Source: Vezdaea acicularis | Lineage: Eukaryota | Direction of reading: 5' to 3' | Assembly (NCBI GenBank): GCA_026025075.1 | Contig: JAPEUI010000001.1 | Coordinates: 62,001-126,000 of the forward strand | Length of the DNA: 64,000 nucleotides | Shown here: one piece after another, positions 18,521-61,727 of the stretch | Layout: each line of letters starts with the position of its first letter | How positions within the stretch are numbered: position 1 is the stretch's first letter | Notes under the pieces: generated by a model | The model's input: the letters and a program-made list of their open reading frames with translations, nothing else | What the model was told of the DNA's origin: nothing | The model's database searches: none | Position numbers and translations under genes: made by a program

Positions 18521-19798
18521 TCAATGTCCGACAGCTACATCTTCCATCTCCCCAGGTTCGTCTCTTATCCTGTGTCTTATGACGCTTGTGTCGCTCTCTC
18601 CGCTAGTAGTTCTCACCAAACTCTCCCGGCTCTTTCTCGCTTCTCGACGCCCCCAGAAAGGCGAGTGGTTGGTTGCAGCATTCATGGTGCTCTGTCGCCG
18701 AGAGAGGCTAGAAAATCTGCTCATACTATGACGTGATGGGGCTGTCTGGAGAGTGCCTTCACTCTTAACTTCGTCTTCTGAGCCTGTCGATAGAGGGAGC
18801 GGAGATGATGATTCAAAACTTGCGGTTTTTATAGTTGGTATCCTTTCCCTATCACCTTCTTCGCTCTTGTCGTACCTTCCTACTTCCTCTTCAGGCACGG
18901 CGTCGTCATCGGTTGAAGTCATACTTAGTTTGTCCGACGCCGTAGGCGAATATCTGCCCTCCAGTACTTGCGCTGGTACTCGGAAGAGTGGCCTTACTTC
19001 TCCCAGTAAATCTGCGAACCGCTCCATCAGGTCCTCGAATTCCTCTCGTGTGAGTGGGATCCCACTCCATCTCGCCCTTTCGTACCTCTCTACGAACAAC
19101 GCGCCTGCTTCGGCAGGAACCACATTGAGAGATGCAAGTTGTGCAATGTATTCAGGCGCACCTGTGCTTGGTGATCGTTGCAACATAGAGAGTAAGGTTG
19201 GTGGAGGCGGTTGGGGAAGGGCCGCAATGGCGTGCGCCTCAACCAGATGCGGGAGTTCAAGGAGAACCGGCCAGTAGGGGACGTTCGGAAGATTGGGGTC
19301 TGATGGTGGCGAGTAGCCAGGATGGGTGACCCTTATATGATGCCGGTGTGCTGAGGCCGGGTTAGGGCTCCGGTGCGAGAACGACTCTTTATCCTGTTGG
19401 TGCAGCTGTGTTTGCTCTTCCTCTTGGTCGAGAGTACGACTCCTTGGCTTTGCCTCCCACTCAATCTCTGCGCTCCTTTGCATAAACCCCTGGATCATCT
19501 TTCCCACATGGCCCCTCCGCCAACCCTTTTCATGCGTATAATTCCATGAGCGGGGCACCCGACCCAGAACGACGCGCGTGTGGTACAGTCGTTGCGCATA
19601 GATAACTAGAGCAAGAACGAAGGTGATGACATAGGAAGCGCCTAGGATGATGATATTATAGGATTGGTTGTTACGATAGGCTTGATAGATCGTGTCAACT
19701 GGAGTGACTAGAATTAGGATTACTAGGATAATGGCCAGGAAGGTGAAGGTTGTGCTGTAGAATATTAGGAAGAGGGGTATGTGAGGGCGTCGGACCAT
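18521..19798 (-). CDS. DLT1: Defect at low temperature protein 1 homolog
   Basis: Two N-terminal TMs (FYSTTFTFL..LILVTPVDTIYQA; YAQRLYHTRVVL), plus HPGYSPP, ELPHLVEAHA and YERARWSG. Single exon. Confidence 0.78.
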   Translation of the reverse strand: MVRRPHIPLFLIFYSTTFTFLAIILVILILVTPVDTIYQAYRNNQSYNIIILGASYVITFVLALVIYAQRLYHTRVVLGRVPRSWNYTHEKGWRRGHVGKMIQGFMQRSAEIEWEAKPRSRTLDQEEEQTQLHQQDKESFSHRSPNPASAHRHHIRVTHPGYSPPSDPNLPNVPYWPVLLELPHLVEAHAIAALPQPPPPTLLSMLQRSPSTGAPEYIAQLASLNVVPAEAGALFVERYERARWSGIPLTREEFEDLMERFADLLGEVRPLFRVPAQVLEGRYSPTASDKLSMTSTDDDAVPEEEVGRYDKSEEGDRERIPTIKTASFESSSPLPLSTGSEDEVKSEGTLQTAPSRHSMSRFSSLSRRQSTMNAATNHSPFWGRREARKSRESLVRTTSGESDTSVIRHRIRDEPGEMEDVAVGH

Positions 19799-20067
19799 TG
19801 TGGGACATTAAAGGGGTTTTATAGTGGTGTGAAGAGCCATGGTATTAGTTTCAATGGGATAAGAAGATTTGATGGGGGTTTGTGGTAGAGCATATCGTTG
19901 CAGATAAGGAGCTGGAAGAGGTTTCGTTTGTGCTTCGTTTCGCACAACCGAAGGTGTCATATATCGAAACCAAAGATGATGAAGAACAAAATCTCCCCAG
20001 TTGATTATTGAGTTCATTTCAGAGCAGAGTTATCATATGCCAAGAGTATCCCTGCTGTTTCTCATTA

Positions 20068-20115
20068 GTTGTTGCATTGGTTGTTGCATTGGTTGTTGCA
20101 TTGGTTGTTTCATTC
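20068..20115. repeat. 12-bp tandem repeat GTTGTTGCATTG x3 plus a degenerate fourth copy
   Basis: Read directly from the sequence. It lies in the divergent region between DLT1 and the repeat-precursor gene. Confidence 0.9.
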
Positions 20116-20729
20116 CCAAGAAAAGTGCTGACTTACGGAGGTACACGTACAAGTCTTAAAGATTGTTAGCTTGGGCAGAGTGGCAACCCCAGCACCGACG
20201 AAATAGTGCAGGAAACGATTTGTCGGTGCAGGGGTTCCCCCCTGCCCGTGCTAACAATCATTAAGGCCTGTACCTCCGTAGGTCCTAGCTATCGTCGAGT
20301 ATCATATTCTCCCATTTGGGTCTCAGCCTATATATTGACGTTTCGCACCCCCCCAAGCAACCCGCCCGCGAAGGTGATAAACCGAATGTGCCATGTAGGT
20401 TTGAAAGCGTTATCAAACATTCTATGTTTGATAAGGTTACTGGGTCTTCCCTTAATAGAGGTTTTCCTTCTTAGTTAGTATTCTGCCGCACTCTTCAAGT
20501 GTTTCCCGTCGCAGGAATGTTACACCTCCCTCAAATCTTGTTGCTTTCTACCCTTGCCCGCCGAGAATCCATAGTGTAGGACAGGGGTAGGAATAATATC
20601 AAGGATATATATACACACATCTCATTCCCTTTTCATCGGTAGTATCAATTTATCACTCTCCCATCCGAGCATCCTATATCTTCTACAATCCAAACCAATA
20701 CCACAAACGGTCTACCAACTTTCACAAAA

Positions 20730-21160
20730 ATGCGTTACTCATTTGCTTCCACCGTACTCCTTGTGCTGTCAGTAAGACTGGTCTCGGCTGCGCCAGCAGC
20801 TGCCCCAGGTGAAGCGTGCTGGGACGGAGGTGCTCGTTGTGCTGAGTGGAATGATGATGGTAAAGTTATTCTAGAGCAGATGTAATGCGTAAAACCGCTC
20901 ATGTATCCTCAGGAACGTCTGGGGAGGTTGACACAGGAACAACAAATACTAAATGGAATGGCGGTCATGGGAGTGTCTCTGGCTCTTGGGGAAGTAGCAG
21001 CTGGAAGGAGAAACGTGCTGCTGGAGAGGTCGTAACTCCATGGTCGGACACCAAGTGGGATGGTAGGCACGGCAGCGATTCCAACGCATGGGGCACTACT
21101 GAGTGGAAGGAGAAGCGAACTGAGGGAGAAGTCGTGACTTTATATTCAGACACTAAGTAG
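20730..21160 (+). CDS. Secreted Kex2-processed repeat protein (KEP-like peptide precursor, 2 exons)
   Basis: ATG 20730 gives signal peptide MRYSFASTVLLVLSVRLVSA, then APAAAP. Intron 20860-20912 (GTAAAG..GCTCAT..CTCAG). 102-nt repeat units end in KEKR at 21011-21016 and 21113-21118. Stop TAG at 21158-21160. Confidence 0.8.
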
Positions 21161-21316
21161 GATGGTCCACATGGCAGCATTTCCGGCTCATGGGGAAGTA
21201 GTGAATGAAAGAAGAAGCGCTATGAAGGTGCAGTTGACCGGATGTTCGGGTACTAAATGGGTGGTGCACTTGGAAGTCTCTCTGGCACTTGGAGTAGCGC
21301 GGAGTAGAAGAACTAG
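21161..21316 (+). pseudogene. Degenerate third/fourth repeat units of the KEP-like precursor beyond the first stop
   Basis: The frame continues DGPHGSISGSWGSSE*KKKR, with KR again exactly 102 nt later (21215-21220). A fourth unit follows with indels and a TAG at a Trp position. Confidence 0.75.
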
Positions 21317-21517
21317 AGTGGCTGGTTTGCTTGAACCGTTCACAGTTGAGGTATGTGGGGGGCAATACCTTCACAACTTTGTGGAGGATCCTACGTTGGA
21401 GGGCACTCTCTGGTAACATGAAGGGCTTGGGGACCCATGTAGGTAAAGACATACGGCTTTAAGCAATGTATTATTGTAGTTACATCGTGGATCGAAATAA
21501 GTCATTCGGTCCCATCC

Positions 21518-22842
21518 CTAAACGGCATCCGGAAACTGATCATCATAATCAGTTTCACCGTCAAGCAATTTCTTCAAGTTCATCCTCGCACTCCATCTCA
21601 CGAATGAGGTTTCGGCCTTATCTTTCACCTCATCTCCCCAGCTAGAGATATCGCTATACGCGCTCACCTTTCCAGCTGGGCGGTGTTGATTAAATAGTGG
21701 CGGCTGCACCGTCAAGCAATTGAGATACACATAGCCATTTTGGCCCTCACACACAAACCGCAGTAAGATGTCGAATGGATCCTCAAGTTTTTTGATACCT
21801 GCCTCGTACAAAATATGTCGAGCTCCAGCCTGACTAACTGCATAACCGAATGAACAAATATTCTCACGCATGTGGTGGATGAAGCGGGTATGTTGAGGGT
21901 ACAGGGCGCGCGGATCTTCCTCTGCAGGCCCTATGGAGAGGTAACTCATCTCAGGTACTGTCTCATCATTGAGGTGGATAACGCGACCTTTGGAGATTTT
22001 GATGGAGCCCGGCCCCCACTTAGGGTCTTGTGAATCTGGGAATTGAGCCCCGCAGTGGCCAAGCCAGAGGACATCCCAGCCATCCCCATAAGCAGAAATT
22101 GAGGGCGGGATGGTTGAGGGTAAATGATCAAGATAGAAATCGTTAGGTTGGTCTTCAGTACCGGCTGGGGACGGGTAAGTAGGGTCAGCATATCTTAGAG
22201 AGTTTGAGGCCAAAGGTTGGAGCAAAGCACGAGAGGATAGAGCAAAATTATAGAGTTGATGCTTAATCCGTAGGTCCCAATCGACATCGTCCTCGAGAAT
22301 AAGCGCACTGGAAAGGTTCCGCTCGACAACCCTATAAATGAAACCTTGTAAGTGAAGGATAGAGAAGATAAGAGCTATACGCAAGGGGTTTTTTGAGACC
22401 CACGTTTGAAGAGCATTCATATGTGCACGCCAGCTTCCAATATTTCCTTTGGAAAAATCCTCTGGACGGTTCCCTGGTGGAAGTACCTTATCCAACACAT
22501 CGTCCCCCCGCACACCATTCACCCAACTGAGATGAACGTTGCTCAAAGCCGCGGTCAATGTCAATGCATCACGGTGGTCCGTCCGCGAAGGCAGGTTGAT
22601 TACAAATATATCCTCGAACTATCATACTCGGCTTCAGTAGACTCGCGCCTGATGGTGAGTGATCTTACCCCTAATGTTGAATTGAAGATATCATCGTATA
22701 GCTTATTCAAGGTCTTCCTGTAAGGATAAATTGGAGGCCGAAAACTTGAGTGCCTGACATGTTGAGATGCGAGAAACAATAGGACCGAGAATAACACTCC
22801 GCCAATCAGCAGTGTAGTCGTACGAGGCAAAGAGGAGATCAT
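21518..22842 (-). CDS. Glycosyltransferase family 25 protein, type II membrane (3 exons)
   Basis: N-terminal TM (LLIGGVLFSVLLFLA), NSTLG..INLPSRTDHRDA, GNIGSWRAHMNAL, ALILEDDVDWD (DxD-like), WDVLWLGHCG and YAVSQAGARHILY. Confidence 0.88.
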
Positions 22843-24454
22843 TATGCGCGTAACTACTCAGTTACGTCATTGATTCAAAAGCCAAGCTTGCGAAGGGCGA
22901 CTCTATAGACGGTAGAACCGTCAGACATAGAGCGCAAAAACAGATAAGTCGCTATGATGAACGATCATAACAAGGACAAAACAGGGCCGTGAAGGGAGTG
23001 TGCAAGGTAGTTAAGTTTATATGATGAGTCGAATAGGGGAATTTCTCCGGCCATTATGCCATTGTCGAAATGAGAGCGCTACGAGGGAAATCGCGCTCCT
23101 CAATCCTTTTGCTCCCAAACGGGCTCTTAGAATGGTCTAGCCCAAGCATTCCGAAACGTGCAAAGAACGCATAAGTCCTAAATTAGTACGCTAGATTTTG
23201 GTGCTGCGATAAGCTATCAACCATCACACGATGTTTTAGGATGCGTAGGCTATTTGCTTGGCGCGATTCTGCTTTAGACGTGCGCTTTGAAAGTTCTGGT
23301 CCTGCAGCAAGTAAAGGTCGCGATGATACACGGACGTGGCACTAAACGCCTCAAAATGGAAACGCTAGGACTCAGTCTTTCAGCATACGAGACCGCTAAT
23401 AATTGCCAGTCCATGTTCGAGCCTCCGGAATTTCCATCAAAAAGCCATGAGACGTCTATCCTTACATGCATTTGACAAGTCATGGGCCTTGATGGAGGCT
23501 TGCATCAGTTGTGAAGGGTGTGCGTATGAGTAGGCGCAGGCTATGATCATTCGGGTTTGATGCAAGCGTCGCGCAGAGTCAGAGCAGGTGGACCGCGACA
23601 AAGTAACATTTGACAGCAGTCAATTGTGTATGTATACACGAAGGAGATCTATGCTGCAGCGCTTCCTATCTACGAGGAACCACGCGGCTCTAGCCCAGGG
23701 TACCCACAGTCTAAGACATGGACTGAGCGGACTCGTGGTTACTACCTCCCGTTCATACCTACGGTCCTTGCATGGCTGATTGAAGTAATAAATCAATGGA
23801 AGTTCTCTGCACGTCGCTGAAGGCGCACATGCGTAGTGCTACTGTGCCGCAACGGTGAAATATGTAGGTTACTTCCTATAAATTCTTTTGGTTCGATAAA
23901 AGGTAGTTTCACTTTATCTCTTCCCGTTTTATCAGGTATTGCCTGCAGCCGACGTGCATCGCCTTTGTGTACAAAAAGCTTATTTGTCCCTTTCTTCATC
24001 TTGATCTATTGCCTCAACCTCGCCGGCTTAGCGCAGGGGTGGTGCTAGATGGGCGACCAAGATAAATTGTAAAGTAGATAGTGACTTAAGAGTAAAAGCA
24101 CCGCGGACTTGGGAATGCGAGGGCATAACAGTTAGCAGGGAGGACTGCCAGGGAATCTTCCCCCCACTTTGACTCCACAACTTCATACCCCTATTTTTAC
24201 TTATGAAAGGAGGAGTGCTAGCTCCTGCCGCGCTACTCATGCGTAGGTCCTTTGCCCAGCAAAAATGCCGATTGACGAGCCTCACAGTGGTGATCGAGTT
24301 GACAGGTGTAGAGGCCGAGCTCATTACTTTACTTATGATGGTGGCAATGGATGTGTTGATGATGCAAACTTTGCACTCTCTAGCCAGCGTTATATCTGCC
24401 ACTTACACCATTTCTGAGATCCTTAACCTGGAACAAGAAAGGTCCCTGTATACG

Positions 24455-24769
24455 CTAGCGCTTCGCTAGCAGGGTATATAAGGATCTCATTTTTCCTTCG
24501 TCTTCTTCTTCGTCTTCTTCTTCGTCTTCTTCTTCTTCTTCTTCTTCTTCGTCTTCTTCTTCTTCTTCTTCTTCTTCTTCTTCTTCTTCTTCTTCTTCTT
24601 CGTCTTCTTCTTCGTCTTCTTCTTCTCTCATACTTTCTGACACTATTGTGGGTTTCGTGCCTTGTGCAGGCCCCATTATCTTGCTGCTTTCTCCTCCGTT
24701 GGCCTCTAGCTTGCCTCTTTCTACGGTCTTGCGGCCATCTTGGAAGCCTACAATCCGTTCTTCTGGCAT
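24455..24769 (-). CDS. Short ORF with a 43-residue poly-Glu/Asp tract; coding status uncertain
   Basis: ATG-initiated 104-aa ORF with no recognisable domain. It may be open only because of the GAA microsatellite. Confidence 0.25.
   Translation of the reverse strand: MPEERIVGFQDGRKTVERGKLEANGGESSKIMGPAQGTKPTIVSESMREEEDEEEDEEEEEEEEEEEEEEEEDEEEEEEEEDEEEDEEEDEGKMRSLYTLLAKR
24497..24625. repeat. (TTC/GAA)n trinucleotide microsatellite with GTC interruptions
   Basis: 43 triplets, read directly. Confidence 0.95.
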
Positions 24770-24869
24770 TACTATGTTAGGTATTCGACCCCCTCTACTT
24801 CCTTAAGTTTCTTTTAAGGCTGGAGTTGCTCCGATGCACCTGGTGGGGCTACTATAGCTAGTTCGTAGG

Positions 24870-41894: not shown

Positions 41895-44891
41895 ATGGAT
41901 GCGAATGAGGAAACTGGTGATGCTTTTGCCGTCCCAGACCTCTGGAAACCCTCCAGCCTGGGGCAAAACGTCTCAGATGCCTCGAGCTTTCTTCTCTCTT
42001 TCCCTCACTTTGAAGGCAAGTCCCCGATCGCGTTATAAGTGCGACGCCTACGCCTGACACTGCGCAGTAGATTTCCATCAGCTTTTTGAGCTGTCTCAGC
42101 ATCTGAAAGATGTTCCTGATGGCCCCCTGGGACTAAACACACTTTCGCTACCAGTACTTGAGACGTTCGAGTTCTTGGAGGAGTCTACAGTCTCGCTGAA
42201 TACCGAGGTTACGCCTCTCGAGACTGATGAGACTGACATCTGGACGCATGAAAATGATGAGAGCAAGCTTGGTACCAGAAGGCTCCATACCTGGGATGCT
42301 TTCGAAGACCCGGAGGCACCAGATCCGCAGATATTTTATATATCGGAGGCGGGCCCTTCGGTCTTCGATGCTACCATTCACGAGCAGTCGGACTTTAACA
42401 TAGGGGATGGCCGTGGGCCCGTCCTTCGGTCCGATATTTTCGTAAAGAGTCTCTTCGAACTTGGAGTAGGAAGAAGCTCCGTACTTTTCACATGGAATGA
42501 AGAGGACCAATCATTCGAACGAATACTTGATGACTCTCGAATGACTGGCTATAGCATTCAAAGTGTTGCTAGTCTTTGCGATCATTTCATAGAACACGGC
42601 AACAACATTAGAAAACTTAATTCTTTTGTGGAAACGACATACGGGAAATATCACTCGTCCCCAGCGCAAGTAGCGCTTGCAGATGCCGCCTCAAACATCC
42701 TCACAACTTTGCAATTCCGTCTTGATGATGCTCGCAAAAGCATACAGACGGCCCTACAGCTCCAAGACCTATTCCACCATCCCGCATTATTACTAAGTTT
42801 TTTGGAGGAGATCGTGAAGGCGTATAAGTCTACAAAAAGCGATGAAGTATTTCTTTCCACTCTCTACTCTAGCGTTCAAAATATGGAGCACAAGAGCATG
42901 TCTTTCCGGGAGATAATGCTTGAGGTTCTCGCGCGAGTCTCTCGGCCTTGGCTGGAGTTTGTGGGGGGTTGGATAGGGGTGCATCGAGAAATCAGTATCT
43001 CTCCTTCGTCGGAAGAGCGCAGCACAAAGTTTGTCAGAGTGGAAGAGAAATCCTGGGTTGACGATCGAGGCATTCAGGTGCAGGGCATTGACTACGTAAG
43101 TTGATCGACCTTACGAGACTTTCTGGCAGTACATGCTGACTGCGAAACAAGACGCTTGACCAAAGCGCTATACCCAATTTCGTCTCTGCTGAGGACGCCA
43201 AAGTCATATTTGAGACAGGGAGGAGCCTTCGAACTTTAAAGTTGCATCATCCGGAGCATCCTTTGGCAAAGCCAGCTTCAATAGAGGATCCAACTGCTCC
43301 TAAGCTGGACTGGAAGTTCTCTTGGGAAGATGTCAGCAGGATAGAGCAAAAAGTGGAAGCTTACGAGCAAGATCTTCGCCGAGCGATACAGAAGTTTTCG
43401 CATCCCAACGCAGATAAGACCCTGCTCTTGGGTGCTTCCGAGCTAGAGAATCAAAATCACTTTGAGACTTTCGGCGTATCGGAAGAGGACATTCAAGCTC
43501 AAATATCAGCTTCTATCGCTGCTCTCAACAAACCTCTACAGCCCGTTAGCGAGGCGGGATCAGACACTCTCCGCCACTTGGTCATCTCGAGAATGCACGC
43601 CGAAAGCACCAACCATCAGCACGAGTGCATATTTGCACCCCCGATATCCCTCACCCCCCTGCTTTCACTATGCCCCATCATTTCTACACAAGCACGGCTA
43701 GTCAACCTGAGCTGCATACGTTCCTTTTTCAAATCCCATCACCTTCGACACCACCTTCAGATCCAACATCGCTTTCACCTCCTTGGCGACGGTGTCTTCG
43801 CCTCCCGCCTCTCAGACGCGCTTTTCTCACCCTCAACAGAGTCCAGTTCACGCCAGCCCGGCATAGCCCACCATGGGACTGCCATGGGGCTCCACCTCGG
43901 CAGCCGCTCCAGTTGGCCACCAGCAAGCTCCGAGCTCCGTCTGGCTCTGATGGGTATCCTGACTGAGAGTTATCGCCCTTCTGGCCACGAGGGTCAGGGC
44001 GCTCACGATCCACAACCTTCCTCGCTCCCGGGCGACCTCAGCTTCTCCGTCCGTGACATGTCTCCTGAAGAGCTAGATCGCTGTCTAGATCCTGACTCCA
44101 TCACGGCCCTCGACTTCCTGCGACTGCAATACAAACCCCCCGCGCCGCTCGAACAGATCATCACGCCCACGAGCCTAGTCAAATACGATCGCCTATTCAA
44201 GCTTCTCCTTCGCGCGGCCCGCATGCGCTTCGTCGTAAGCCAGCTCTTCCGGGACAGCTGTGACCGTACTTCGTCGTGGCGTGGCGGTAGCCATACCATC
44301 GAACAACGATTCCGGTTCGAGGCGAATCACTTCGTGTCGACCATCTGCGGGTACCTCCTTGAGATCGGCGTCGGGGCGACGTGGAAGCTTTTTGAGGACA
44401 AGCTCGATCAGATCGAGTCCAGGATCAGCCGGGAAGACGGGGAGGCGACGCTGGGGCAGCATGAGGGCATCGACACGCTTCGAACGTATCACGAGCGGGT
44501 CCTAGACCGGATGCTCTTCGCGACGCTCCTCCGGAAGAGGCAGGAGCAAGTCATGGGGCTGCTCGAGGAGATCTTCGCCTCCATCCTGTCGTTCGCGCGA
44601 CAGACGCGAAAGCGGGTCGAGGACCCGTCCGCGTCCGAAGCCGGGGTCGACGAGGACATCCGCGCCCTCTACGGCAAGTTTCGCGCGCGCGCCGGCGTCT
44701 TTGTCGGCGTCTGTCGGGGGCTCGGCGCCAAGCGCGGCTATGGGGAAGGCAAGCGGCGGGAGCGGGGCGGGGGCGCAGCGGACGAGCTCTTCGGCGCGGA
44801 GGAGATGAGCGAGGAGGGCGGCAATAGTATCGGCTTGCTCTCGTTGCGGCTGGAGATGTCGGGGTTTTATACTGATACGGCGCGCGTGTGA
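41895..44891 (+). CDS. Gamma-tubulin complex component, Spc97/Spc98 family, GCP6-like (3 exons)
   Basis: N-terminus DAFAVPDLWKPS; LGVGRSSVLF; FHLLGDGVFASRLSDALF; WPPASSELRLALMGILTE; ALDFLRLQYKPPAPLEQIIT..KYDRLFKLLLR. Confidence 0.87.
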
Positions 44892-46207
44892 GGTTTTGCA
44901 ATGGGATGGGATGGGACGGTTGGCGTATCGGCATCCGGTTGTGTGGGATTGATGAGATGATACCCCCGCGAGGAGGGTGGGAATGGACTTGGCGTTGAAG
45001 TACGGACGACCTTACCGAATGCAGATTCCAAAGCGCGTGCTCTCTGAATATACTTAATACTATTCTGCTCCCGATTCTACGCCTGCAAATTACCCTCTTC
45101 CTCTCACAATGACACGCTCCCTGAGCGAGATTTTCCATATCTGAGTCAGAGCGTCGTTGCATGGACGGTGGAAAGCGAGGGTTGGGGGCAATTTAGAATC
45201 TTACTTCATTGGGCTGAAAATTGGGGGGTGGGCCCCTTAGGGCAATGTGATGGGGGGATCATTGGATTCTTCGTTTGCTCGGAGTGGGTGGTAGAGTTAA
45301 TTTATCAAGCGGCGTCAACCTGTTATGTTTTTTGGCAATATTGCATGGGCAGTATTGGGTCCATTCTGGCGTGTCTGGGCCACTGAGTGGGGGTTTTAGA
45401 CTTCGAAGGGCGGATGTGGTTTCGTAAAATCGATGAAGGATTTACCGAGGAGTTTGCTGTTGCACGAGAGAAATCACCAATACTCCTTCATATAATTAAC
45501 ATATTCGAGAATAGGAAGGGAAAAAGAGAAGAAATCGATAATAAATTTCAATCAAATCAGGATGGGTGAATTCGTATCCTGGATGGGGAGTGGGCCCCAG
45601 GGCATGGTCTCGGCGCCGTTTCCAGCGAGCGGTCCGTGTGGCCTCGGGGGGGCCGAGTGGGGCGGGTGGCCGAGCCGGGCCAGGCACCGCGCCGAATCGG
45701 GACAGGTACGGGGGGGGGGGGTTGGATGGGAGATGGCGGATGGGCGGAATTGGCTGCTCCCGCCGCGGACAGAAAAGCAACATCTGTGGGGGAACAGGAC
45801 TGCTCTTCCGGTGGGGTTTAGTGCATCAATTCCATCTTCAATGAGCGCGTCTGACAACGCTGGCCCATCAGCAGCGTCCACCGTTAACTTAATTGATGAT
45901 TTCGTCTTTCGCGTCTGTCGTCGTCGTTCAGGGTCCCTCCCCCCCCCCCTCCTCCCCCCATGTCTCAGTGGCAGGCGAGGACGCGGTCGCTAAAAAGGAA
46001 AGCACAAAATGCCGCAATAGGGAGTCGCCGCCCTGGGCTGCTCCCTCCCATCTGGGCGAGGGGGCATGGGGCGCGCTCGGGCCGCCGTAGTCGCGTAGTC
46101 AGGAACCGTCGGGGGCGGTACGGGGGCGCAGAGGGCGCAGGGTGGTCCTGGTGCAGCGAGCAGTGGACGAGCAGCAGCAAATGAAGCAGCAATGGAGCAG
46201 CATTTGG

Positions 46208-46276
<69 letters not shown>
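46208..46276. repeat. (GA)n dinucleotide microsatellite
   Basis: About 34 GA units with one CA interruption. Confidence 0.95.
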
Positions 46277-46279
<3 letters not shown>

Positions 46280-47588
46280 GTCCCGGCGGCCGCGCCGTTG
46301 GTGTTTCATCGCGTGCGTGAACGCGCTCCTGGCCCCATCGTGCGTGAAGAGGGAGGGGGAGGGGGGAGAGGGCATGCGGCGGATGGGACGCGGTGCAACG
46401 GTCGAGGGCGTGCGCTATCCAGACCCCGTCGTGGCTGCATAATTGATAAAGTCGCGATATGTCGCCAGGACGCAGCTGCGCTCTGCTTTTTCATCAATGG
46501 CCGCGCGAGTGGACACGCTCTTGGAGTCAACGATGCAGCACTTCCTTTCGCGTGTAATGTGTGTTTGGTGGATGGTACGTCAGAAGGAGGGTCGTTTCCA
46601 CAGCTCTTCGGTGATTCGACGATGGTGATTGTTGATGGGCTGCCGATCAGGAGCAGCGGCTCGGCTGGGACCAGCAGGAGAGCTCGTGGCCAGACGTCTC
46701 GAGGGAGGAGCATCTGCAAACAGTGGATGCCGTGGGTCGGAGACATGAAGCTATCGTTCTGCTCCAATTTTGCTCCCATTCTGCTCCCGTTCTGCTCGCG
46801 TTGCTTTTTGGCTGCCGGCGGAGTATCGACCATCGACTATCGACTGTCGACTGCTGCGTCGTCGAGGCCGCTCCTGAAACGCCAAGGCTGCGCTCCACGT
46901 GTATTGCTTCTGCGGCGGTGCCTGGAACGGCGGCCGCCAACCCCGACCGTGCTGCCTCCGTCCGCTGCTGCCCTCGTTGCTTGCACAAGCAGCAAAGACA
47001 CGCTCGACGATAGATACATCTCCCTCATCATCTCTCCCCCCCTTTCGTCGCAGCCAGAGCGATGGAGGGAACGGACGGTCCTAAAGCTCCGATCACCAGC
47101 TCTTAGTGCGTGCGCCATCGCCGTCGTCCAGTTGCCGTCGCCCTCGCCTACTGTAGCTCCCTGCCCGCCCCGGCGAATGAGCACAACCGAGCCCCCTTCA
47201 GCCCAGACGACGCCAGTCGAACCTGACACTCCCAAAACTGGTCGACTCGAACACCGTCGTCCCTCCACTCCCTCCACTCCCTCCACCGACAACGCCGATT
47301 CGTCTCTGGAGACGTCGGCCGCCCAATTTATCCATTCAACCTCTCCGACACCCATCGATACACTCGCTCGAGTCCGCCCGGATCAGTGCTGGCTGCTGAA
47401 CGACGGGCGCCCCACGATCGAGACCGCTGCCGTCTCGCCTTTTCGAACCCGAGTAGGGAGCAACACGATACCGCCGCTTCTCCTGGACGCCGCAACGAAG
47501 CAATTTGGACCAACCACGCTTCCTGGGGAGACTTCCGGTTTTCTTGGACCGCGATTAAACATCGTGGTCCATCGTTCGACCGGCCGTA

Positions 47589-50500
47589 ATGATGGAATCG
47601 CCAGGCGTCTTCCCCGAATCGCCTATGGACCAGGAGGATGCTGCATATCCGTGCAAAGGCTGCGGCGAGGTGAGCTTGCCCTACCACGATGCAAACGACT
47701 GATGATGGTCAAAAGAGCGCATGGTGCTGTAGAGATGTCCATGGCTAACACCGTATTCCATTGCAGATCCTCGAGGAGGGTAAAGCGTTCGAGTTGGGTG
47801 AGTGCAGCTTTCTCTTTTAGTCGAGCAAAAATGTAGTCGCTCCTCGTGAGTGCCATGAGGAAGAAGGGAGAAAAAAATAACAATTCGCCGTGCGTGGTTG
47901 GAAACCAATATGCTGAGTCCAATATAGCTGGCAACAGATGGCACATCGACTGCTTCCGATGTAACACCTGCAACACTCTTCTCGACTCCGATGCGAACCT
48001 GCTTCTCCTGGGCGACGGCTCCCTCATCTGCAACAACTGCACATACAGTTGTAATGCCTGCGGCAACAAGATCGAAGATTTGGCGATCCTCACCGGCGAC
48101 CAGGCCTTCTGTGCGAGCTGTTTTCGCTGTCGGAACTGCAAGCGGAAGATTGAGAATCTTCGCTATGCACGCACATCACAGGGCATCTTCTGCATGAGCT
48201 GTCATGAATCGCTGATGGCACGACGACGGAAGAAGACGAGAGCAAACCGGGACCAACAGCAGAAGGCGGGCAGCAATTCACAGTCGCCCATGCTGCTGGA
48301 CAAGTCCTTGCCTTCACTTCCTTCGACCTTGCCCGGTCAGAGCGCTACAAATGCACCTCCAATACCAACGTCCGCCACAAGCTCACTTGCTCCCGATCAC
48401 TCGACACCACCTTCCGAGTCTTTGACGGAGACACCAACGGACAACTCGCCACGTCCAAAGCCTTCCAGCCAGCGCAACGAGCTCACTTCTTCGAGGGGTG
48501 CGATACAAGACCGTTCGCAACCGCCCGCGGAGACTGGACACGCTGATGATACCAGTGCGAGAAAAGGTGTGTTTCCCCCGTTCAACCCTGTCAATCGTCA
48601 CATTGTTGCTCATTTAAATTGTACAGAAAACGCCAAAGCTAATATATTACTGCCTTCAACCACCTACGAGAGCAGCCGCACCCCCCCTCCACCCGACTTC
48701 CAGGCCCGTACCTCGGGTGACTCCAACGACCCATTCTCTTCATTCATTCCTCTAGCTCTCGACGATCGGCCCGCATCTGGCCCCTCGCCGCTTGTTCACA
48801 GCCAGAACTTCGCAGAAAGTTCACACGAAAAAGAGGCACCTCCGAGCAAGCCGAAGGAAAGCAAGGGCGATCGAGATTATTTCAACGTCACAAGAACGCC
48901 GTCCGGCCGAAAAGATACCCTTGACAAGACGAACAAGAAGGTCGGCAGCCCGCACGTCGCGTATCAGGAAAAGGGAAGACAGCCGTCTTCGGAGCTCACA
49001 GACATGATACGAAACCGCTCCCGCTCGGAATTTGGTGGGGACGGGCAGAATGCCGCAAACCTCAGGTCGACATCCACTGGTGATAATACAAAGGTGCAAC
49101 ACGTACCAGCGCCAGTCCAGAATGGGAGGACTGCTTCAGGCTCGGGAGATAAATTCAAGCTGCAGGAGGTCCCCAAGAGCAGGAAATCCGGGAGCACGAG
49201 AAGCTCCAAATCAGGGGTACCGTCGCCGAGCCCAGACGGCTCAAAGGAGCAAATAGCTGTCCCCCAGACAGACTCTCCTAAACCGATTGTGGGCTTAGGA
49301 GTGATGGATGGATCGCCACGGATATCACAAGACTCGAGAAATGATTCGGTAAACTCCATGGCTTCGTCACAAATGCAGCATAATCCGAGAAGAGAAGACT
49401 CTCTGGCTGCAGCAATGCCGAAGCAAACGATTGCAAGGAAAGAACTTCCAAGTTCTGGCTCTTCATCAAGTTCTCCCCATGCGCCTGGATTTGGTCCACC
49501 CCAAGGCTCCACTACATCCACCGAGGTATCAACGTCTGCTCTCGCTGCCACCAACGGTAACAAGATGACTCCACCCTCTTCTGGTGACAGCGAGGGTAAG
49601 CAGATACCGCCCAAATCCAAGGGTAGGCCACCCGTCGGTGCCGCAGGCCAGTATGGTGTATCCAGAGGTCCCATGGTTGGTGAAGAGCAACATATGCCCA
49701 CCTCGGCCGGAACGACGCAGACTGATTCCTCTCGAGGCGGCGACGCGCCACTCTCGTCGCCGGCTCTCCCACAGTACCTCGCTGGCGGCGACTTCAACAT
49801 GGAAGAGGACATGGCTCGCATTCTTGGTGGCCAAGACGAGAGCTCAACCTCATTGCTCCGCCGAGTCTCAAATGCTGTTCGACACGGTCGAAGCTTCAGC
49901 GACATGGCAGCGCGGACGAGCTCATCTCCGAAATATGCAAAGTCACCGCCAAACGGTTCCATTGCTCGCGAAATCACGACACCGACGAGCTCGCCGGAGA
50001 CCAAGGAAGAAAATGTCGTGCTCAAGCATGAGCTGAGGCGGTCGGCCCAGAAGATTGCTGAGCTGGAAAGAAGAATCAACGGAACACATGAAATCAAGAG
50101 CCTGGACACCAAGCTGCGGGAAAAGAGATCGACGGTTGCCTTCCTCGACTCGCAAAAGGAGATTGTGGTTCGAGAGTTAGAGGTCTTGACCGATCATGTT
50201 GCTCAGGCGAAGCACAACGATAAGCCAATCAACCTCGATGACCTCTCTAACAGCGTCATTCGCGAGTTCGCAGAGTCACTAGAGAGACTGAAGGATTCGT
50301 ATGCCCCCGAGATCGAGGAGCTAGTACACCAGCGGAATCAGCTCCTCGAAGAGAATGCCAACCTCACCCGTCTTCGCGATCAAGCCATCCAAGAGACTGA
50401 GCAACTAAACCTGAAGAACGCCCAGCTCGCCGACCTGAATAATGAACTCACACAACAGATTCAAGAGCGATACAAGGCCAATCGTGCCTTCCCAGTCGAT

Positions 50501-51692
50501 CACACGATGGACAGCCCCCGTGCAAATGGCCTTGGTATCTACACGCATCATCACAAAGAGCTTTCAACTACCTCCATGGACACCCGTGACATGCGGCCCA
50601 TGACTGCTGCAGGTGCCTCTTCCTCATACTCCACTCTCGTACCCACGCCACAGGAACAGTCTGAAGGCGAGCCTGCTACCGTGTTGACCGCCCCACATGT
50701 CATAAATATCCGGAAAGGGCAAGCAAAGAAGTTCAATTGGAAGAAAGGAGGTCAATCGGTGGCGAAGGGCGTCTCGAAGGGTTTCAAAGGTGCTTTCAGT
50801 TCCACGGACAGACAGAATCAGCCATACTCGCAGCAGGACCGGCCAATGGCTGAAGGCCTTCCCTACGGAATGACCCAAGCGGGCGAGACCCCAACGATGA
50901 TTAAACCTGCAGATATGCAGAATAAGCAGCCGCGTTTCGGTATATTCGCCGCGGCCTCGCGTGGTCAGCCGGGACGAAGTGCATCAAATGGGAATATCAA
51001 CGCCCTGATATCTGAGCCAGGCCTGGGCAATCCCAGCATTCTCTTTGGCTCGGATCTTGGCGAGCGTGCGGAGTTCGAGAGGAGGCAGATCCCTAGCGTC
51101 GTCACCAGGTGCATCGAGGAGGTGGAGCTTAGAGGCATGGACATTGAAGGTATCTACAGGAAAACAGGTGGAAATAGTCTGGTCAAGGTGATCCAGGAGG
51201 GCTTCGAGAAGAGCGAGGATTTTGACATTAGCGATCCTGGTCTGGACATCACAGCCGTCACGAGCGTGCTGAAACAGTACTTCCGAAAACTCCCCAACCC
51301 GCTGCTCACCTTCGATAGCTATGATAGGGTCCTGGAAGTAAATGGTAGACTTTCCTTCAATTTTCAATATTTTTATCTCTTCAAACACGATTGCTAACAC
51401 CACGCTCAAACTAGGTTTGCACGAGCTACATCTCAAGATTGACTCGTTCCGAGCTACCATCAACTCTTTACCTCCCAGGCACCGCGACTGCCTTGAATTT
51501 CTCATCTTCCATCTTGCACGTGTCGCGACAAGGGAAAAGGAGAATCTGATGACACCCAAGAACCTAGCGGTTGTCTTTGCTCCCACAATCATGCGCGACA
51601 CCAGCCTTGAGCGAGAGATGACCGATATGCATTCGAAGAACCAGGCTGTGCAGTTTCTGATCGAGAACAACAAGAGCATCTTCGCAACATGA
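47589..51692 (+). CDS. RGA1: LIM-domain Rho GTPase-activating protein, Rga1/Rga2-like (5 exons)
   Basis: Spliced N-terminus YPCKGCGE|ILEEGKAFEL|AGNRWHIDCFRC starts two LIM domains. A coiled coil follows, then the RhoGAP domain (EGIYRKTGG, KQYFRKLPNPL, NLMTPKNLAVVFAPT). Confidence 0.9.
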
Positions 51693-52348
51693 TCGGGGTT
51701 TACGAACGAATGACGACTGGGGTGGCATCTCCCTTGACTTGAACCACTAAAAAAAACGGGTTGGTTTCCTTGTGGTGGCATTGTGACTAAAGATGCTCGA
51801 CTGGCCATGTGTGTAGGGGCCCCATCTTGCATTGATCTGGGTTCATTCGCGTTTTTCAGCGTGCGACTTTGATTTGCGGCATAGGACCCTCGGCAGAGGT
51901 GCCGGGTATGCGTTTGTGGTTGTTTTTTGTGATTTTCTGTTGTTGGAAGGATGGATCGCGACTTGAATCAAGATACTCCGACCCGATGGGCATTCTGTTA
52001 CTTTGAGCTAATTTGGGCCGATTGGGTGTGTGTGGGTTCGATGCTACTCCCGCTTCCGCCTGCGACTCTTGGTGCGCACGTAGGCATAGAGTCGGGCCTT
52101 TCGTTAGCCCGCCAGGATTTTTTGTGTACAGTGAGGTTTTTGCGAACGGATAGGGGTGGAGATGGGAATGGAAAGGCATGATCATTACTTTTGTATTGAG
52201 TATCTTGGAGGCGGAGAATTTGAGTTTATGACGAGTTTACCCATGATTACATGACTCTTCGGTTTGAGGGAGTGACAGTGGTGATACGATGGTGGCTCCT
52301 CAAGAGTTCACTAGAGTGAATCATCACATAAAAACCGAGAGTGAAAGA

Positions 52349-53611
52349 TCAAGGTTGATCCTCTCTATTCACTTCCGCCGCATCACGCTTCCCATACACA
52401 AATCCCTTCCAATTCTGCCCCAGCTGCCTGACCCCGCTCTCCAGACTCCAGCCCCTGACTTCGCAAATACATTCCACCATCTCCCTCAACAACGCGTCCA
52501 TCTCGTCCCCAGCTTTGTGGAGGTCGCTCTCCACCAGCAACCTGTTCTCAGGCACCGCCTTGATGACCTCAACCGCCTTCGCGCTCGCCGAGGTAGAGAA
52601 ATTGATGACCGTAGAAAAGGATAGGTAGACCTCGCACGGCACCGACGGGTGGAAGTACTGCTTCAGCCCCTCCGGCGGCCCAGAGTACGAGTGCAGACAT
52701 ATCCTGGGCGGGAACGGCCTCGGGCCCTCCGCAGCAGAAATCTGTGATCCCTCCTCATCGTCCCAAGGGTCGGGCGTACCGGTGGTCCCATGCGCCTCCG
52801 CGACGCTCCCTCGCCGCTTCCGCGTCCGCCGACTGACCACCTCCCTCTCCCATCCTTTCCACGTCGCGCGCAGCGTCTCAAAGAGCACTCCATGCGCCTG
52901 CACGCCATGCACGGATACCGCGCGGCCCAGCTCGCCCGCGAGCTTCAGTTGCGCGGTCAACACTTTCTGCTGGTGGGCCAGGGAGACACGGTGCGGGGAG
53001 AGCCGGCGACCTTCGCGCCCGCCAGGGGTGAGCGTGGAGTCCTGCTGCTCGGGCGCGTCAGCGGACTCCGCGGTCGAGGGTTCGGGCAGGCGGAAGGAGC
53101 GGTCGAGTCCGATTTCGCCGACGAGCGCGAGCGGGTGCCGGGTTAGGTAGGAGCGTGTCTGGGCGATGTAGGCGGAGAGGGAGGAGGGGGCGGGGAGGGC
53201 GGAGAGGAAAGAGGCGGAGGGCGGGGGGGTGATTGCGGCGTGGTAGTGCGTTGCGGCAAAGGAGGCGGAGGTGGGGTCGGGAGAGGCGGCGGCGGAGATG
53301 TCGTCGTAGAGCTGATGCGAGAACCATGGGTGCCAGCCGAAGCAGGGGATCACTTTCCCGCTGGAGGGTTCGTTTGGGTCAACGCCCAGTTCGTCCGCGA
53401 CGGAAGATACGAGGTGTTGGTCTTGTGAGCGCGTAGCCATCACGGTGAGGGTGGCGGCTTTCATGTGGGGGATGGAGGGGATGGAGGACATGGTGTCGGT
53501 GGGGTGGCAGTGTGCGTCGTGCACGCCCAGATGCCATGGGAACTGAGCGGTTCCTTCTCCCGCACCCCCAGTCTCCATGTCTGTAGATTCCTTCCGGGAG
53601 TCCTCCGCCAT
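52349..53611 (-). CDS. SCN1: TatD-family metallo-hydrolase, Cut9-interacting Scn1-like
   Basis: [43 protein letters not shown] and LLVESDLH motifs. Confidence 0.85.
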
Positions 53612-53918
53612 GTTTAGTTGAAGTCGAATATCAAAAACGCGGATGTTCATGTGAAGATGGTTCCTCTCGGCAAATCCCCCGCCGCAAGCGACGGCGACAG
53701 CCGTTGCCAAGCCGCAAGCATGGATTTTCACATGCTTCCGTCGACATGATGCAACCGGCTACCGCAGCCGTCCCCAATCCCGGGGTCCTTTAATGCGAAC
53801 CGGTTCTAGCAGCAAAATCCTGACCTTTGCAAAACCCTCCCTACCACGCCAAGATGTCTTTCTCCTCCTCCACCACAGCCACGATGTTCCAGCGCTTCCC
53901 TCCGCTGTGCCGGTGACC

Positions 53919-54755
53919 ATGTTCTCACTGCTGAAGATGCTCCTCTGCTACCCCACCTCGGCGGCGCTGTCGACCTGCGCCGTCCTCTTCTGCCTCCCCA
54001 TCGCCCTCTTCGCCCTCTTCACCTCCTCAATCGCCTTTTCCACGCTGGCCATCCGAGTCCTGGTCGTCTACATCGAGCTCGGCATGGCCGTCACACACGA
54101 ATACTTCTTCATCTCGCCCTCCCCCCCACCCTACCAACCCACACGACCCCACCGATCCAGCTCATCCCCAACCGCAGGCCCGGACACAGCGCGGTGGACA
54201 AAGCGGAGAAGCAGCGCCGGCAGCTCCCGCTCAGACATCGTACCCGGACAGCAGCAGCAGCCGCCACGCCCGGCGCCGCAGCGCTCGCAGAGCGGCTTCT
54301 TCGGGCTCGGAGCAGTCGGGCTGGAGCGGGACTTCGAAGGTGTGGGCGGGTGGCGGTTCGCCGGGTCCGGAGGGGAAGACGACGAGATACAGTGGTCGTC
54401 GATGAACTCGCGGCTGAAGACGCCGTCCGCGCACGACCAGGACCGGAGGAGGAAACACCATCGCCGCTCCCTCACTTCCGGGAGCTTTCCCGCGGCTTTG
54501 ATGACGAGTAGCAGCAACACCTGGGCGACGCGCCATAGCCGGGCGAGGAGTCATCCCAAGACTCCGCCGGCGCATGTGACGTATAAGGAGGACGGAGAGA
54601 GCTACTTCCAGGACGAAAAAGCGAGGGCAACGGCGGATGTGGAGAAGGCGGTGGAGACCCTGGACAGCCAGATGAATGGCTCGAGTTCGACGATCAGCAG
54701 CGCTGCGAGCAGTACGAGGGGCTCGAGGTTGAATCTTACGATGAAGCTGAGGTGA
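53919..54755 (+). CDS. Uncharacterised fungal protein with N-terminal TM segment(s)
   Basis: Hydrophobic N-terminus (LPIALFALFTSSIAFSTLAIRVLVVYIELG), ERDFEGVGGWR motif and GC3-biased codons. Confidence 0.7.
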   Translation: MFSLLKMLLCYPTSAALSTCAVLFCLPIALFALFTSSIAFSTLAIRVLVVYIELGMAVTHEYFFISPSPPPYQPTRPHRSSSSPTAGPDTARWTKRRSSAGSSRSDIVPGQQQQPPRPAPQRSQSGFFGLGAVGLERDFEGVGGWRFAGSGGEDDEIQWSSMNSRLKTPSAHDQDRRRKHHRRSLTSGSFPAALMTSSSNTWATRHSRARSHPKTPPAHVTYKEDGESYFQDEKARATADVEKAVETLDSQMNGSSSTISSAASSTRGSRLNLTMKLR

Positions 54756-55099
54756 TGGGATGATGGATCGCTTGGCTGGGACCTTTCTTTTGACTAGGGG
54801 GGATCTTCGGAGCTTCGATAACGTTCTTTTCGATTGTCTAAATACTACTCTTGCCAATATCAGGTGGCGGCGGTATGAATTGGAACGGAGTTTGCGGCGC
54901 CTAGCTTTACATGGGTGGATGTATCCCAAGAATTGCATGAAGTCTTGGGTATTCACTTTTATCACAGACTTGCGAATACACGGATTTCAAGTTCTAGTAC
55001 TCCCTACTGATGGTCCTAATACTATACAACCGCCCCGTTTCAAAAGAAAATAACGAAAGCATCTCCCTCATAAATCCCATCAACAAACGCCTAATCAAG

Positions 55100-56801
55100 T
55101 CACGACATCAACGACTTGGAGTGGCGCGACACATCCGCCATCTCCTCGCGCATCACCTGATTGAACTCTTCCCATCCATCCAGATACACGTGATGGCCAG
55201 CTTTCTTGATCACCAGCACCTTTGCCGATCCGTTCTCAAGCTTACGCTCCTCCGGCGACGCGGATTTAAGAACCTTCTCTTGCTCTTCTTTCAGCTTTTG
55301 CTCTGCTGCATATCCACCAGCAATATCCATCCAGTCGTTCTCTCCGTACATGAAGACGATTGGTATGCCATGCTCTTTCAGGGTGGCTGATGGAGGTGAT
55401 ATATCACTCGTGGAGCCATCCGTCGCTGGGGGCGAGATAATCTGCCGCCCTACATTTTGTATACGCCGTATCAGGGGGCTCCTTGCGAACGCTCCCGGAG
55501 CCAGGATATACGATAGGGCGTATTCGCCGCTACCTCGTTGCCGGAACAGGGTATATGAATAATGATGAAGCGCTTGTGATTCTTCAGCAGGAAGGAAGGA
55601 GAAGCGCCGAGTAGTCCAGCCGGAAACGAAACGAGGCCCCAGCGGACCACCCCATCGGATTATGCTAAAGGGAGAAATGTTTGCGTCCCAGAGGTATGTC
55701 AACCATTTGGGGAGAGGCTTCCGCCGTGGGCCCGAACCGCCATCGTCAGCTGTTGCTTTCTTCGCTGCATCTTGCTCCGCTTTCGCCCTCGCATTAAAGA
55801 GTCTATTGTTGTCGCCACTACTTCGTGACCCATCGAGGCTTGTATGTCCAGCTGTTTCTTCTTGGGACTGGGTAAATTCATTACCCATCGTCGAGGACTC
55901 CGGCTCTGGCATAGCCTCGTTGACAGCATATGGGTCTTCAGGAATTCCGACAGGGGATGCAAGAATCAGTTTCTTCAAATGTCCCGGGTACTTCAAGGCG
56001 TACGCTACAGCCATATAGCCACCAAGACTATGGCCCAGGAGTGTGAATTTGTCGATCTTCCTTGCTATCCGCCACTCTTCGAGCGAATCGACGAACCAGC
56101 TCTCGGCCTCTGCGATCTTGCCCTCCCGATCCTTGGCGTGGATTCGGAAAGGCGGCCGGCTACTGCGACCCATTCCAAGCATATCCAGAGCCCAGAGTTT
56201 CCAGCCTTTCGGTCTACTGAGCCCTTCGAAGTTTCTGTAGAAGAAGCCAAGGCCAGCTCCATAACCGTGAACCATGACTAGATTCTCCTCAACGGTTTCA
56301 CCCACTCGCTCAATGGAGAACTCGTTCAATGCACGCTCTTTGCCAGGGAGCTTCACCAAATTGGAATGCCACCTTCTTGGCCCATAAGGGTCAGTAATAG
56401 AATTCGTTGTTACCGTGTGTACTGTATCGGGCTTATCCTCTCCAATTGACAAGCTCGAAGGCGATGTAGAAACAGGAGCGGAGCCGGTTTCCATTTGTGT
56501 CGGTGGTTGTTGTAGGTAAGGCACGAATGAGATGACCTTATGCTCTGCAGCGGCAGGGCTGATATTTGCCCACTTTGACTTATGTCAGCGTTTGTTTGAA
56601 TGTCGCATAAGTGTGTGAGAATACCCATTGAGAGAATCCGTCTTTGTAGCCTAGAGGGAACCAGCCTCCCGCCCTTCCCATCCTCTGCTCTTCGGTCGGG
56701 TGTGACATCTGCTGCTCTTTAGATCTATGGCGCGCGAGCATAGGTTGTTGCTTCCGGGCTCTGGCATCGTCGCCGGATCCGGACACTGAAGCAGTAGACA
56801 T
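55100..56801 (-). CDS. Alpha/beta-hydrolase, Cld1/Ict1 (ABHD4/5)-like lipid deacylase/acyltransferase (2 exons)
   Basis: VMVHGYGAGLGFF, DMLGMGRSSRP, GHSLGG nucleophile elbow and HHVYLD (HX4D). Splicing restores GFSQWWANISP. An upstream in-frame start is possible. Confidence 0.88.
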
Positions 56802-61330: not shown

Positions 61331-61727
61331 GTGGTTCGTGGATTGATGGTCGCGTGAGCCATATAATTCTATCCTGACCGCTTCGGCCGATGCCGCGTAG
61401 GACCGACCTTGAAGATATTCATTTTACACCACGCCGCATCAATTCTTGTTTCTAGGCGGATGCCTGTCTTCCTCCAAAAAGCTTCTAATTGCAGGGCTGT
61501 TTTTTTTCAAAGCGGATATATTAATCCAGGATGACCTCAAAGTCCCCCCGCGGCATATGCAAGCTCTGAAACACTTTATCTTGAAATATTTATGTGTTGA
61601 AATGCCGATTAAATCGGCTGCTTGACCTCGAGTATTTCACTCACCCTCGGTACCGAAAGGTTCCAAGAAAAACCAATGTACCAACGCCATGGGTGCTAAG
61701 AGCTGTCGGGCAAACCCGAATCGAGCT

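Follow-up and report, generated by a model that had tools for sequence, protein, structure and literature searches.

A candidate Kex2-processed repeat protein gene with eroding 3′ units in the lichen-type fungus Vezdaea acicularis

The window, the whole stretch of 64,000 nucleotides that was analysed, is fungal nuclear DNA of Vezdaea acicularis (Pezizomycotina, order Vezdaeales), a lichen-type fungus living on mosses with algae. A two-exon gene lies on its forward strand and its features are collected in Table 1. The reading frame opened by the ATG at 20730, interrupted by the intron at 20860-20912 and continued in exon 2, specifies a spliced protein of 125 aa as read from the sequence. The initial annotation had proposed that splicing of a short first exon reveals a signal-peptide-like start, the dipeptides AP-AA-AP, a Cys-looped lead segment and repeats of 102 nt, and all of these elements were found in place. 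The gene is however not hidden, as had been claimed, because NCBI already annotates exactly this two-exon model as a hypothetical protein, with an identical intron and the same 125-aa product at 100% identity ('MAG: hypothetical protein M1824_000025 [Vezdaea acicularis]').

Table 1. Positions of the peptide gene, its predicted parts and its flanking features in the window.
Feature	Position	Strand	Description
428-aa ORF	18521-19807	-	upstream of the peptide gene
TATA-like element	20604..20615	+	~115 nt 5′ of the ATG; read from sequence
Exon 1	20730-20859	+	MRYSFASTVLLVLSVRLVSA / AP-AA-AP / GEACWDGGARCAEWNDD
Signal-peptide-like N-terminus, codons 1-20 (MRYSFASTVLLVLSVRLVSA)	20730..20789	+	predicted cleavage after V-S-A
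Three X-Pro/X-Ala dipeptides AP-AA-AP	20790..20807	+	Ste13/DPAP-type signature; from the protein sequence
Lead segment GEACWDGGARCAEWNDD(G) with C-x6-C pair	20808..20859	+	no dibasic site before repeat 1
Intron	20860-20912	+	53 nt, GT..AG: GTAAAG...CTCAT-N10-(C)AG, phase 1
Exon 2	20913-21160	+	starts in phase; TAG stop 21158-21160 included
Repeat 1 (GEVDTGTTNTKWNGGHGSVSGSWGSSSWKEKRAA)	20921..21022	+	KR at 21011-21016
Repeat 2 (GEVVTPWSDTKWDGRHGSDSNAWGTTEWKEKRTE)	21023..21124	+	KR at 21113-21118; 19/34 residues identical to repeat 1
Repeat 3	21125..21226	+	in register, without indels; TGG>TAG 21158, TGG>TGA 21206; first 11 codons translated
Repeat 4, decayed relic in the 3′ untranslated region	21227..21316	+	five small indels, three stops in the old frame
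GT25-like protein	21518-22618	convergent to the peptide gene	Pfam

In the housekeeping genes of the window, continuity of frame and of Pfam domains suggests five introns, which measure 52-70 nt, display GTAAGT, GTAGGA, GTGAGA and GTAGAC as 5′ sites and carry the branch-like elements CTGAC, CTCAC and CTAAC. The 53-nt intron of the peptide gene resembles them in both length and signals and thus appears typical for the V. acicularis genome. Its retention would yield a 51-aa product terminated by the TAA at 20883. On the 3′ side of the TATA-like element a pyrimidine-rich stretch is followed by the start context CACAAAA-ATG, and we infer a putative promoter role for this element.

The genomic neighbourhood was defined by comparing 221 stop-to-stop ORF translations across the whole 64 kb with Pfam, using a cut-off of at least 70 aa for ~9.3-31 kb (plus the 51-aa exon-1 ORF) and of at least 80 aa elsewhere. 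The neighbours identified include a MYST acetyltransferase, a P450, Srp40, eIF5B, the GT25-like protein, an Ost-alpha transporter and Csf1, together with a gamma-tubulin complex protein, a LIM-RhoGAP, TatD, an alpha/beta hydrolase, Spo7, End3 and a carbonic anhydrase. DUF3328, tyrosinase and methyltransferase were found in none of the 221 translations of the 64 kb, a set from which intron-split genes present in smaller pieces could escape. Judged by these matches, the neighbours are housekeeping genes and the 64-kb window holds no RiPP cluster. The window displays some further features. A 12-nt tandem repeat (20063-20114; 4.3 copies, 95% matches) is located between the 428-aa ORF and the peptide gene. 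The G+C content is 0.56-0.60 over ~44-56 kb (44001-56000), with 0.516 in the 50-52 kb bin, and 0.46-0.50 elsewhere, falling to 0.39 at 60-62 kb (60001-62000), while many ORFs overlap on both strands in the ~44-56 kb segment. Four ORFs of 115-117 aa also overlap on both strands within ~380 nt at 24423-24806, where the sole Pfam match is a weak acidic low-complexity one, and this segment probably represents simple-sequence coding or repeat DNA.

The N-terminus of the protein contains an Arg in the n-region, a hydrophobic core spanning residues 5-15 and V-S-A at positions -3 to -1. The Kyte-Doolittle means of 11 residues reach 1.7-1.95 across residues 6-21 and the sole helix of the AF2 model is located at residues 5-16. 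The mature part that would follow VSA|AP comprises 105 residues and is dominated by 16 Gly, 12 Thr, 11 Ser and 9 Trp, with 6 Val, a single Leu and neither Ile, Phe nor Met. Its hydropathy is negative in all windows from residue 26 on, the window starting at residue 21 scoring +0.32, and the pieces between the KR sites, of 56, 32 and 13 aa, have pI values of 4.1-4.7 and GRAVY values of -0.5 to -1.2. The AF2 model displays a mean pLDDT of 46.9 and no secondary structure besides the signal helix, although as a single-sequence model computed with no alignment it constitutes weak evidence. Together the composition and the model probably fit a disordered secreted protein or peptide precursor rather than a folded repeat domain. 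The similarity of the lead segment to the repeats is marginal at the DNA level, and the proposal that the lead is a shortened repeat was rejected because its score was equalled in 14 of 300 shuffles and is not significant.

The units of 34 aa begin at 20921, 21023 and 21125, and are thus spaced by exactly 102 nt with no gap. Units 1 to 3 share 60, 63 and 74 of 102 bases in the pairwise comparisons, where chance would give ~26% (binomial P <= 3e-12). Among 22,500 other ungapped 102-mers nearby, the highest match was 46/102. Similarly, TRF reported a period of 102 with 0% indels and a score of 233. The fourth unit, although decayed, is recognised by a local score of 44 against a null maximum of 30, a value reached by none of 300 shuffles. 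The conserved unit motif is G-E-V-x-T-x4-T-K-W-x-G-x-H-G-S-x-S-x2-W-G-x3-W-K-E-K-R. The units end in KEKR and the Arg of the K-R pair is encoded by cgt, cga and cgc in units 1, 2 and 3, respectively. The junction between the lead and repeat 1 has no KR, leaving two KR sites only in the intact ORF. The first KR is followed by AA, a Ste13-type XA dipeptide, while the second is followed by T-E, which is neither X-A nor X-P.

Comparison of repeats 1 and 2 identified differences at the three codon positions in a 10:9:23 ratio (chi-square p = 0.013), and the Nei-Gojobori estimates are 0.27 for pN and 0.95, hence saturated, for pS. With the synonymous sites saturated and 19 of 34 residues kept, the two repeats are old copies held by selection on the peptide. 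Different codons are used at 13 of the 16 conserved non-Trp residues, 10.6 being expected at saturation (P = 0.15). This comparison points firmly to past purifying selection on the peptide sequence of repeats 1 and 2, with the K-R pair among the residues kept. In addition, the codon-usage log-likelihood is +13.2 bits for the sense frame and ranges from -4.3 to -37.4 bits for the other five frames. Judged from its sequence, the gene is a real protein-coding gene read in the sense frame. An antisense ORF of 84 aa (20965-21219, minus strand) is open across repeats 2-3 and also displays a third-position bias. It was rejected as coding on account of its stop in repeat 1, its score of -8.8 bits and its weaker pN/pS contrast. 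Its openness is explained by the third codon positions that it shares with the sense frame. This ORF appears to be a by-product able to mislead ORF-based annotation.

Repeat 3 carries two in-frame stops, TAG at 21158-21160 and TGA at 21206-21208. Logan contigs of four sequencing runs, representing four samples and two studies, were compared with the window over 20500-21600. Both stops are covered by contigs of X1, possibly the source of the window, and of X2, in which G>A at 20924 is the sole departure from the window. A contig of X3 (21155-21535) and one of X4, from the second study (21182-21332), display zero differences. The stops in repeat 3 are not assembly errors: both recur in contigs from other samples, and the two interruptions marked in this repeat by the initial annotation are thus real. 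The same result removes the third peptide that it had listed, which cannot be made because the open frame ends at the TAG. The change at 20924, where X4 has G, puts Lys in place of the conserved Glu in the 'GE' that starts repeat 1. No other difference is listed for the four runs across 20500-21600; an X4 contig covering 20897-21119 has a single additional, unlisted one.

Two ways of reading through the stops were examined and rejected. Reassignment of TAG or TGA to Trp is contradicted by six large ORFs of the window, whose 5827 codons contain 69 TGG and zero internal stops; the genetic code is therefore standard and the stops of repeat 3 are stops. Intron-like signals are present in repeat 3, where GTAGGA at 21156 is the hexamer of the inferred End3 intron and a CTCAT-N10-AG ending at 21201 is arranged as in the real intron. 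A second intron skipping the stops would nevertheless fail at either acceptor, since with the AG at 21201 the frame meets a TGA after two codons and with the AG at 21211 it enters a frame that bears no resemblance to the repeats and scores -3.5 bits in codon usage. With repeat 1 as outgroup, the repeat-3 lineage has accumulated 7 changes, 1 synonymous and 6 non-synonymous, and the repeat-2 lineage 10, 4 synonymous and 6 non-synonymous. Five of the 7 changes in repeat 3 are G>A on the plus strand and these include both Trp-to-stop changes. RIP as the cause of the stops is not supported, a TpG/CpA context being present in 1 of the 5 G>A changes, numbers that are too small. Of the 19 conserved residues, 16 are retained in repeat 3. 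Compared with the age of the units, the truncation is therefore recent, and repeat 4 died earlier.

Relatives of the protein were sought at several levels. An exhaustive phmmer search of 1.84 billion cluster representatives returned at E <= 0.001 only the protein itself, a word-index search with exon 2 gave only the self-match among 30 candidates, and among longer proteins 5342 candidates were scored with zero at E <= 1. Pattern matching against JGI metagenome contigs produced 140 candidates, of which 0 were confirmed. At E <= 10 Pfam returned only PF25687, with an E value of 0.19, and no family was assigned to the 125-aa protein. Similarly, no relative was found among the PDB sequences, where the best match, a T-cell receptor chain at E 0.16, is noise. 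The best look-alike in the ESM Atlas has a score of 0.86 and a recognition of 1757, both under the levels stated for the tool. Thus, the earlier statement that the repeats match no recognised family stands for Pfam, the PDB and the 1.84 billion representatives. A tblastn search for paralogues within the 64-kb window led back only to the peptide gene and its repeat 3/4 region, all further matches having E >= 1.6. The old age of the units suggests that orthologues should exist in other Vezdaea species, and these may possibly be present but unannotated.

Kex2-processed repeat proteins (KEPs) are found in nearly all fungi (PMC6339444). In the screen of Le Marquer et al. 2019, as described there, a KEP has a signal peptide by SignalP, no membrane segment and repeats over at least 15% of its length, and is split by cuts after KR/RR (or KK) into at least four fragments of which at least three are similar; XA or XP defines the Ste13 signature (PMC6339444). 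The screen of Umemura 2020 is described as relying on a SignalP signal peptide and on three or more repeats, each 8 aa or longer, lying between KR/KK/RK/RR sites (PMC7329392). The two 34-aa units of the V. acicularis protein cover 68 of 125 residues (54%) and hydropathy reveals no transmembrane segment. Its two KR sites, with no RR, KK or RK, generate three fragments, namely two full units and the 13-aa stub. Before the nonsense change the gene, then carrying three sites, would have passed both KEP screens.

We favour, with our confidence evenly balanced, the view that this is a lineage-restricted, KEP-like gene, eroding from its 3′ end, for a small secreted, acidic protein that is probably disordered, has abundant Trp, Gly, Ser and Thr and is made up of 34-aa units. 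From the sequence we infer its expression, splicing, secretion and cleavage as well as an extracellular signal or surface role. Signal peptidase would cut after VSA and a Ste13-type dipeptidyl aminopeptidase would then be expected to trim AP-AA-AP. A Golgi kexin would cut after both K-E-K-R sites and Kex1 would subsequently remove K-R. Three products would result, namely the lead joined to repeat 1 (~50 aa), which would hold one disulfide loop, a peptide of ~30 aa from repeat 2 (GEVV...WKE) and a stub of 13 aa. The initial annotation had expected a series of ~30-aa peptides starting at GE, but the two KR sites predict a single piece of ~30-32 aa next to one of ~50-56 aa and the stub. It had also read the protein as having the Kex2/Kex1/Ste13 layout, which is borne out by the signal-peptide-like start, the X-P/X-A dipeptides and the KEKR ends of the repeats. 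This layout is nevertheless incomplete, as the lack of a KR before repeat 1 and the T-E after the second KR imply that unit-by-unit release is not consistently encoded. The gene formerly carried at least four units and is losing them from the 3′ end, repeat 4 having been broken by indels and repeat 3 recently truncated by a Trp-to-stop change.

The same incomplete sites would be expected if the protein were secreted uncut, as a single disordered acidic Trp/Gly/Ser/Thr-rich protein acting, for example, at the cell wall or the surface or in polysaccharide binding, with K-E-K-R representing a charged unit end. Under this possibility, which is unlikely but deserves weight, the lead/repeat-1 junction could do without a dibasic site and the second KR without a Ste13 substrate behind it, and conservation would extend, as found, across the whole 34-aa unit (19/34) beyond a short core beside KR. 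The 23 Ser and Thr among the 105 mature residues would also allow O-mannosylation. In contrast, K-x-K-R occupies the same place in three units and is encoded with three Arg codons, which has the look of a selected kexin site. A protein that depends on its full set of units should scarcely tolerate a cut within one, and no fold or domain was detected by AF2 or in the PDB and Pfam.

The loss of repeats 3 and 4 could also herald the disappearance of the entire gene. It would then be dying or dead, inactivated by the nonsense change in repeat 3 and left as a functionless annotated ORF, which we regard as improbable. Consistent with such a fate, two of the four units have been lost by now, the repeat-3 lineage displays the 6 non-synonymous changes against 1 synonymous, and 2 of the 3 runs covering base 20924 carry a non-synonymous polymorphism at a conserved repeat-1 residue. 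In addition, no homologues were found in the searches above and 0 of the 6 listed sequencing runs are recorded as RNA. The region upstream of repeat 3 argues otherwise, because its 114 codons contain no stop and no frameshift and all of their 9 Trp codons are intact, whereas 2 of the 3 in repeat 3 are lost (Fisher p = 0.045). This provides weak evidence that the shortened gene may still be kept by selection. The lineage-specific changes, fewer in repeat 3 (7) than in repeat 2 (10), also suggest that the truncation is recent and has left little time for decay either way. Furthermore, multi-copy peptide precursors would be able to lose copies and keep their function.

The signal-peptide-like start, the Ste13-type dipeptides and the KR sites recommend in turn an alpha-type mating pheromone precursor with the Cys-loop lead as the pheromone, a highly improbable identity for this protein. 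Alpha-type pheromone peptides of Pezizomycotina usually have two conserved Cys, and C-x6-C with a central Gly matches the two-Cys motif of Xylona heveae, RFCHLPGQGCSK, as given in the KEP survey (PMC6339444). Apart from the two Cys and the one Gly, however, the lead has no alignment to this motif. The Cys loop is present in one copy only with no KR after it, while the repeated units have no Cys and would yield peptides of ~30 aa, outside the 9-24 aa of the alpha-pheromone class, so that several 9-24-aa copies flanked by KR and XA/XP are not present. The MF_alpha cluster appeared at rank 6 in the ESM Atlas with a score of 0.77, under the level counted as a lead, and Pfam gave no MF_alpha or MF_alpha_N match at E <= 10.

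A dikaritin-type (ustiloxin-like) RiPP precursor with units cyclised by DUF3328 oxidases is scarcely credible, since its signal-peptide-like start and KR-delimited repeats, and the existence of Trp-containing KEP types accompanied by DUF3328 genes (PMC7329392), are set against intact units that have no Tyr, housekeeping neighbours and the 221 ORF translations devoid of DUF3328, tyrosinase and methyltransferase. [quoted passage not shown] The UstYa-type DUF3328 gene is sought by Umemura 2020 within 15 genes, the average distance being 3 genes (PMC7329392), and no such gene was found near the peptide gene in the 64-kb window.

The unit motif might define a new class of secreted acidic Trp-rich fungal peptides of ~30 aa acting on the algal or moss partner, either as a symbiosis signal or as a Trp-mediated wall binder, with a copy number governed by birth and death. 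This proposal is quite improbable at present. The synonymous saturation between units, which implies that the peptide and not the DNA has long been preserved, would argue for a specific molecular target of this kind. To our knowledge, functions are known for few KEP-derived peptides, among them pheromones, repellents, toxins and candidalysin, and lichen-forming and alga-associated fungi are almost unexplored for such peptides. In a survey of lichen RiPPs, as far as it was available to us, none of the clusters is described with a repeated precursor and Vezdaea goes unmentioned (PMC12048977). The V. acicularis gene adds a clean case in which purifying selection at the peptide level appears between units, and a visible record of the apparent loss of units from the 3′ end, one at a time. 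In practice it would serve as a peptidomics candidate, a KEP-like orphan predicted from sequence.

Several known systems share parts of this organisation. Ece1p of Candida albicans is a secreted polyprotein that Kex2 cleaves at Lys-Arg, yielding peptides of ~30 aa, and candidalysin is one of 31 aa (PMC5784256). The likeness to Ece1p lies in the putative Kex2 processing, but the predicted V. acicularis peptides are acidic and rich in Gly, Ser and Trp rather than hydrophobic, making a lytic role unlikely. Rep1 of Ustilago maydis is a secreted pre-pro-protein giving, once cleaved within the secretory pathway, 11 amphipathic amyloid-forming peptides that act at the hyphal surface (PMC3133707). Only the presumed processing is analogous, since the V. 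acicularis units are two, hydrophilic and acidic (GRAVY ~-1, pI ~4.5), and no similarity to any other protein was found at E <= 0.001 in the 1.84 billion representatives. With dikaritin precursors the protein shares KR-delimited repeats and would share a signal peptide, but its units are long and Tyr-free and no DUF3328 gene is nearby. Known dikaritin cores are far shorter than 30-aa units. The proposed route through signal peptidase, Kex2, Kex1 and Ste13 is that of alpha-factor precursors such as yeast MFalpha1. In contrast to the two-Cys pheromones of Pezizomycotina, the repeated unit of ~30 aa is Cys-free and the single Cys loop has no KR flanks. The closest resemblance is to the KEPs, from which the gene departs in having two KR sites where at least three repeats are required, no site separating unit 1 from the lead, and two additional units that are pseudogenised. 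It would share a signal peptide with KEPs and, in common with them, displays no membrane segment, tandem units each ending in KR, a Ste13-type XA/XP signature and a unit length within the 25-50 aa class. Most KEP types are reported as unique at the genus level, and 2560 of 7878 KEPs are stand-alone and lack a homologue (PMC7329392). As orphan KEPs are thus common, the V. acicularis gene, similarly devoid of a homologue outside its species, would be one more KEP-like orphan.
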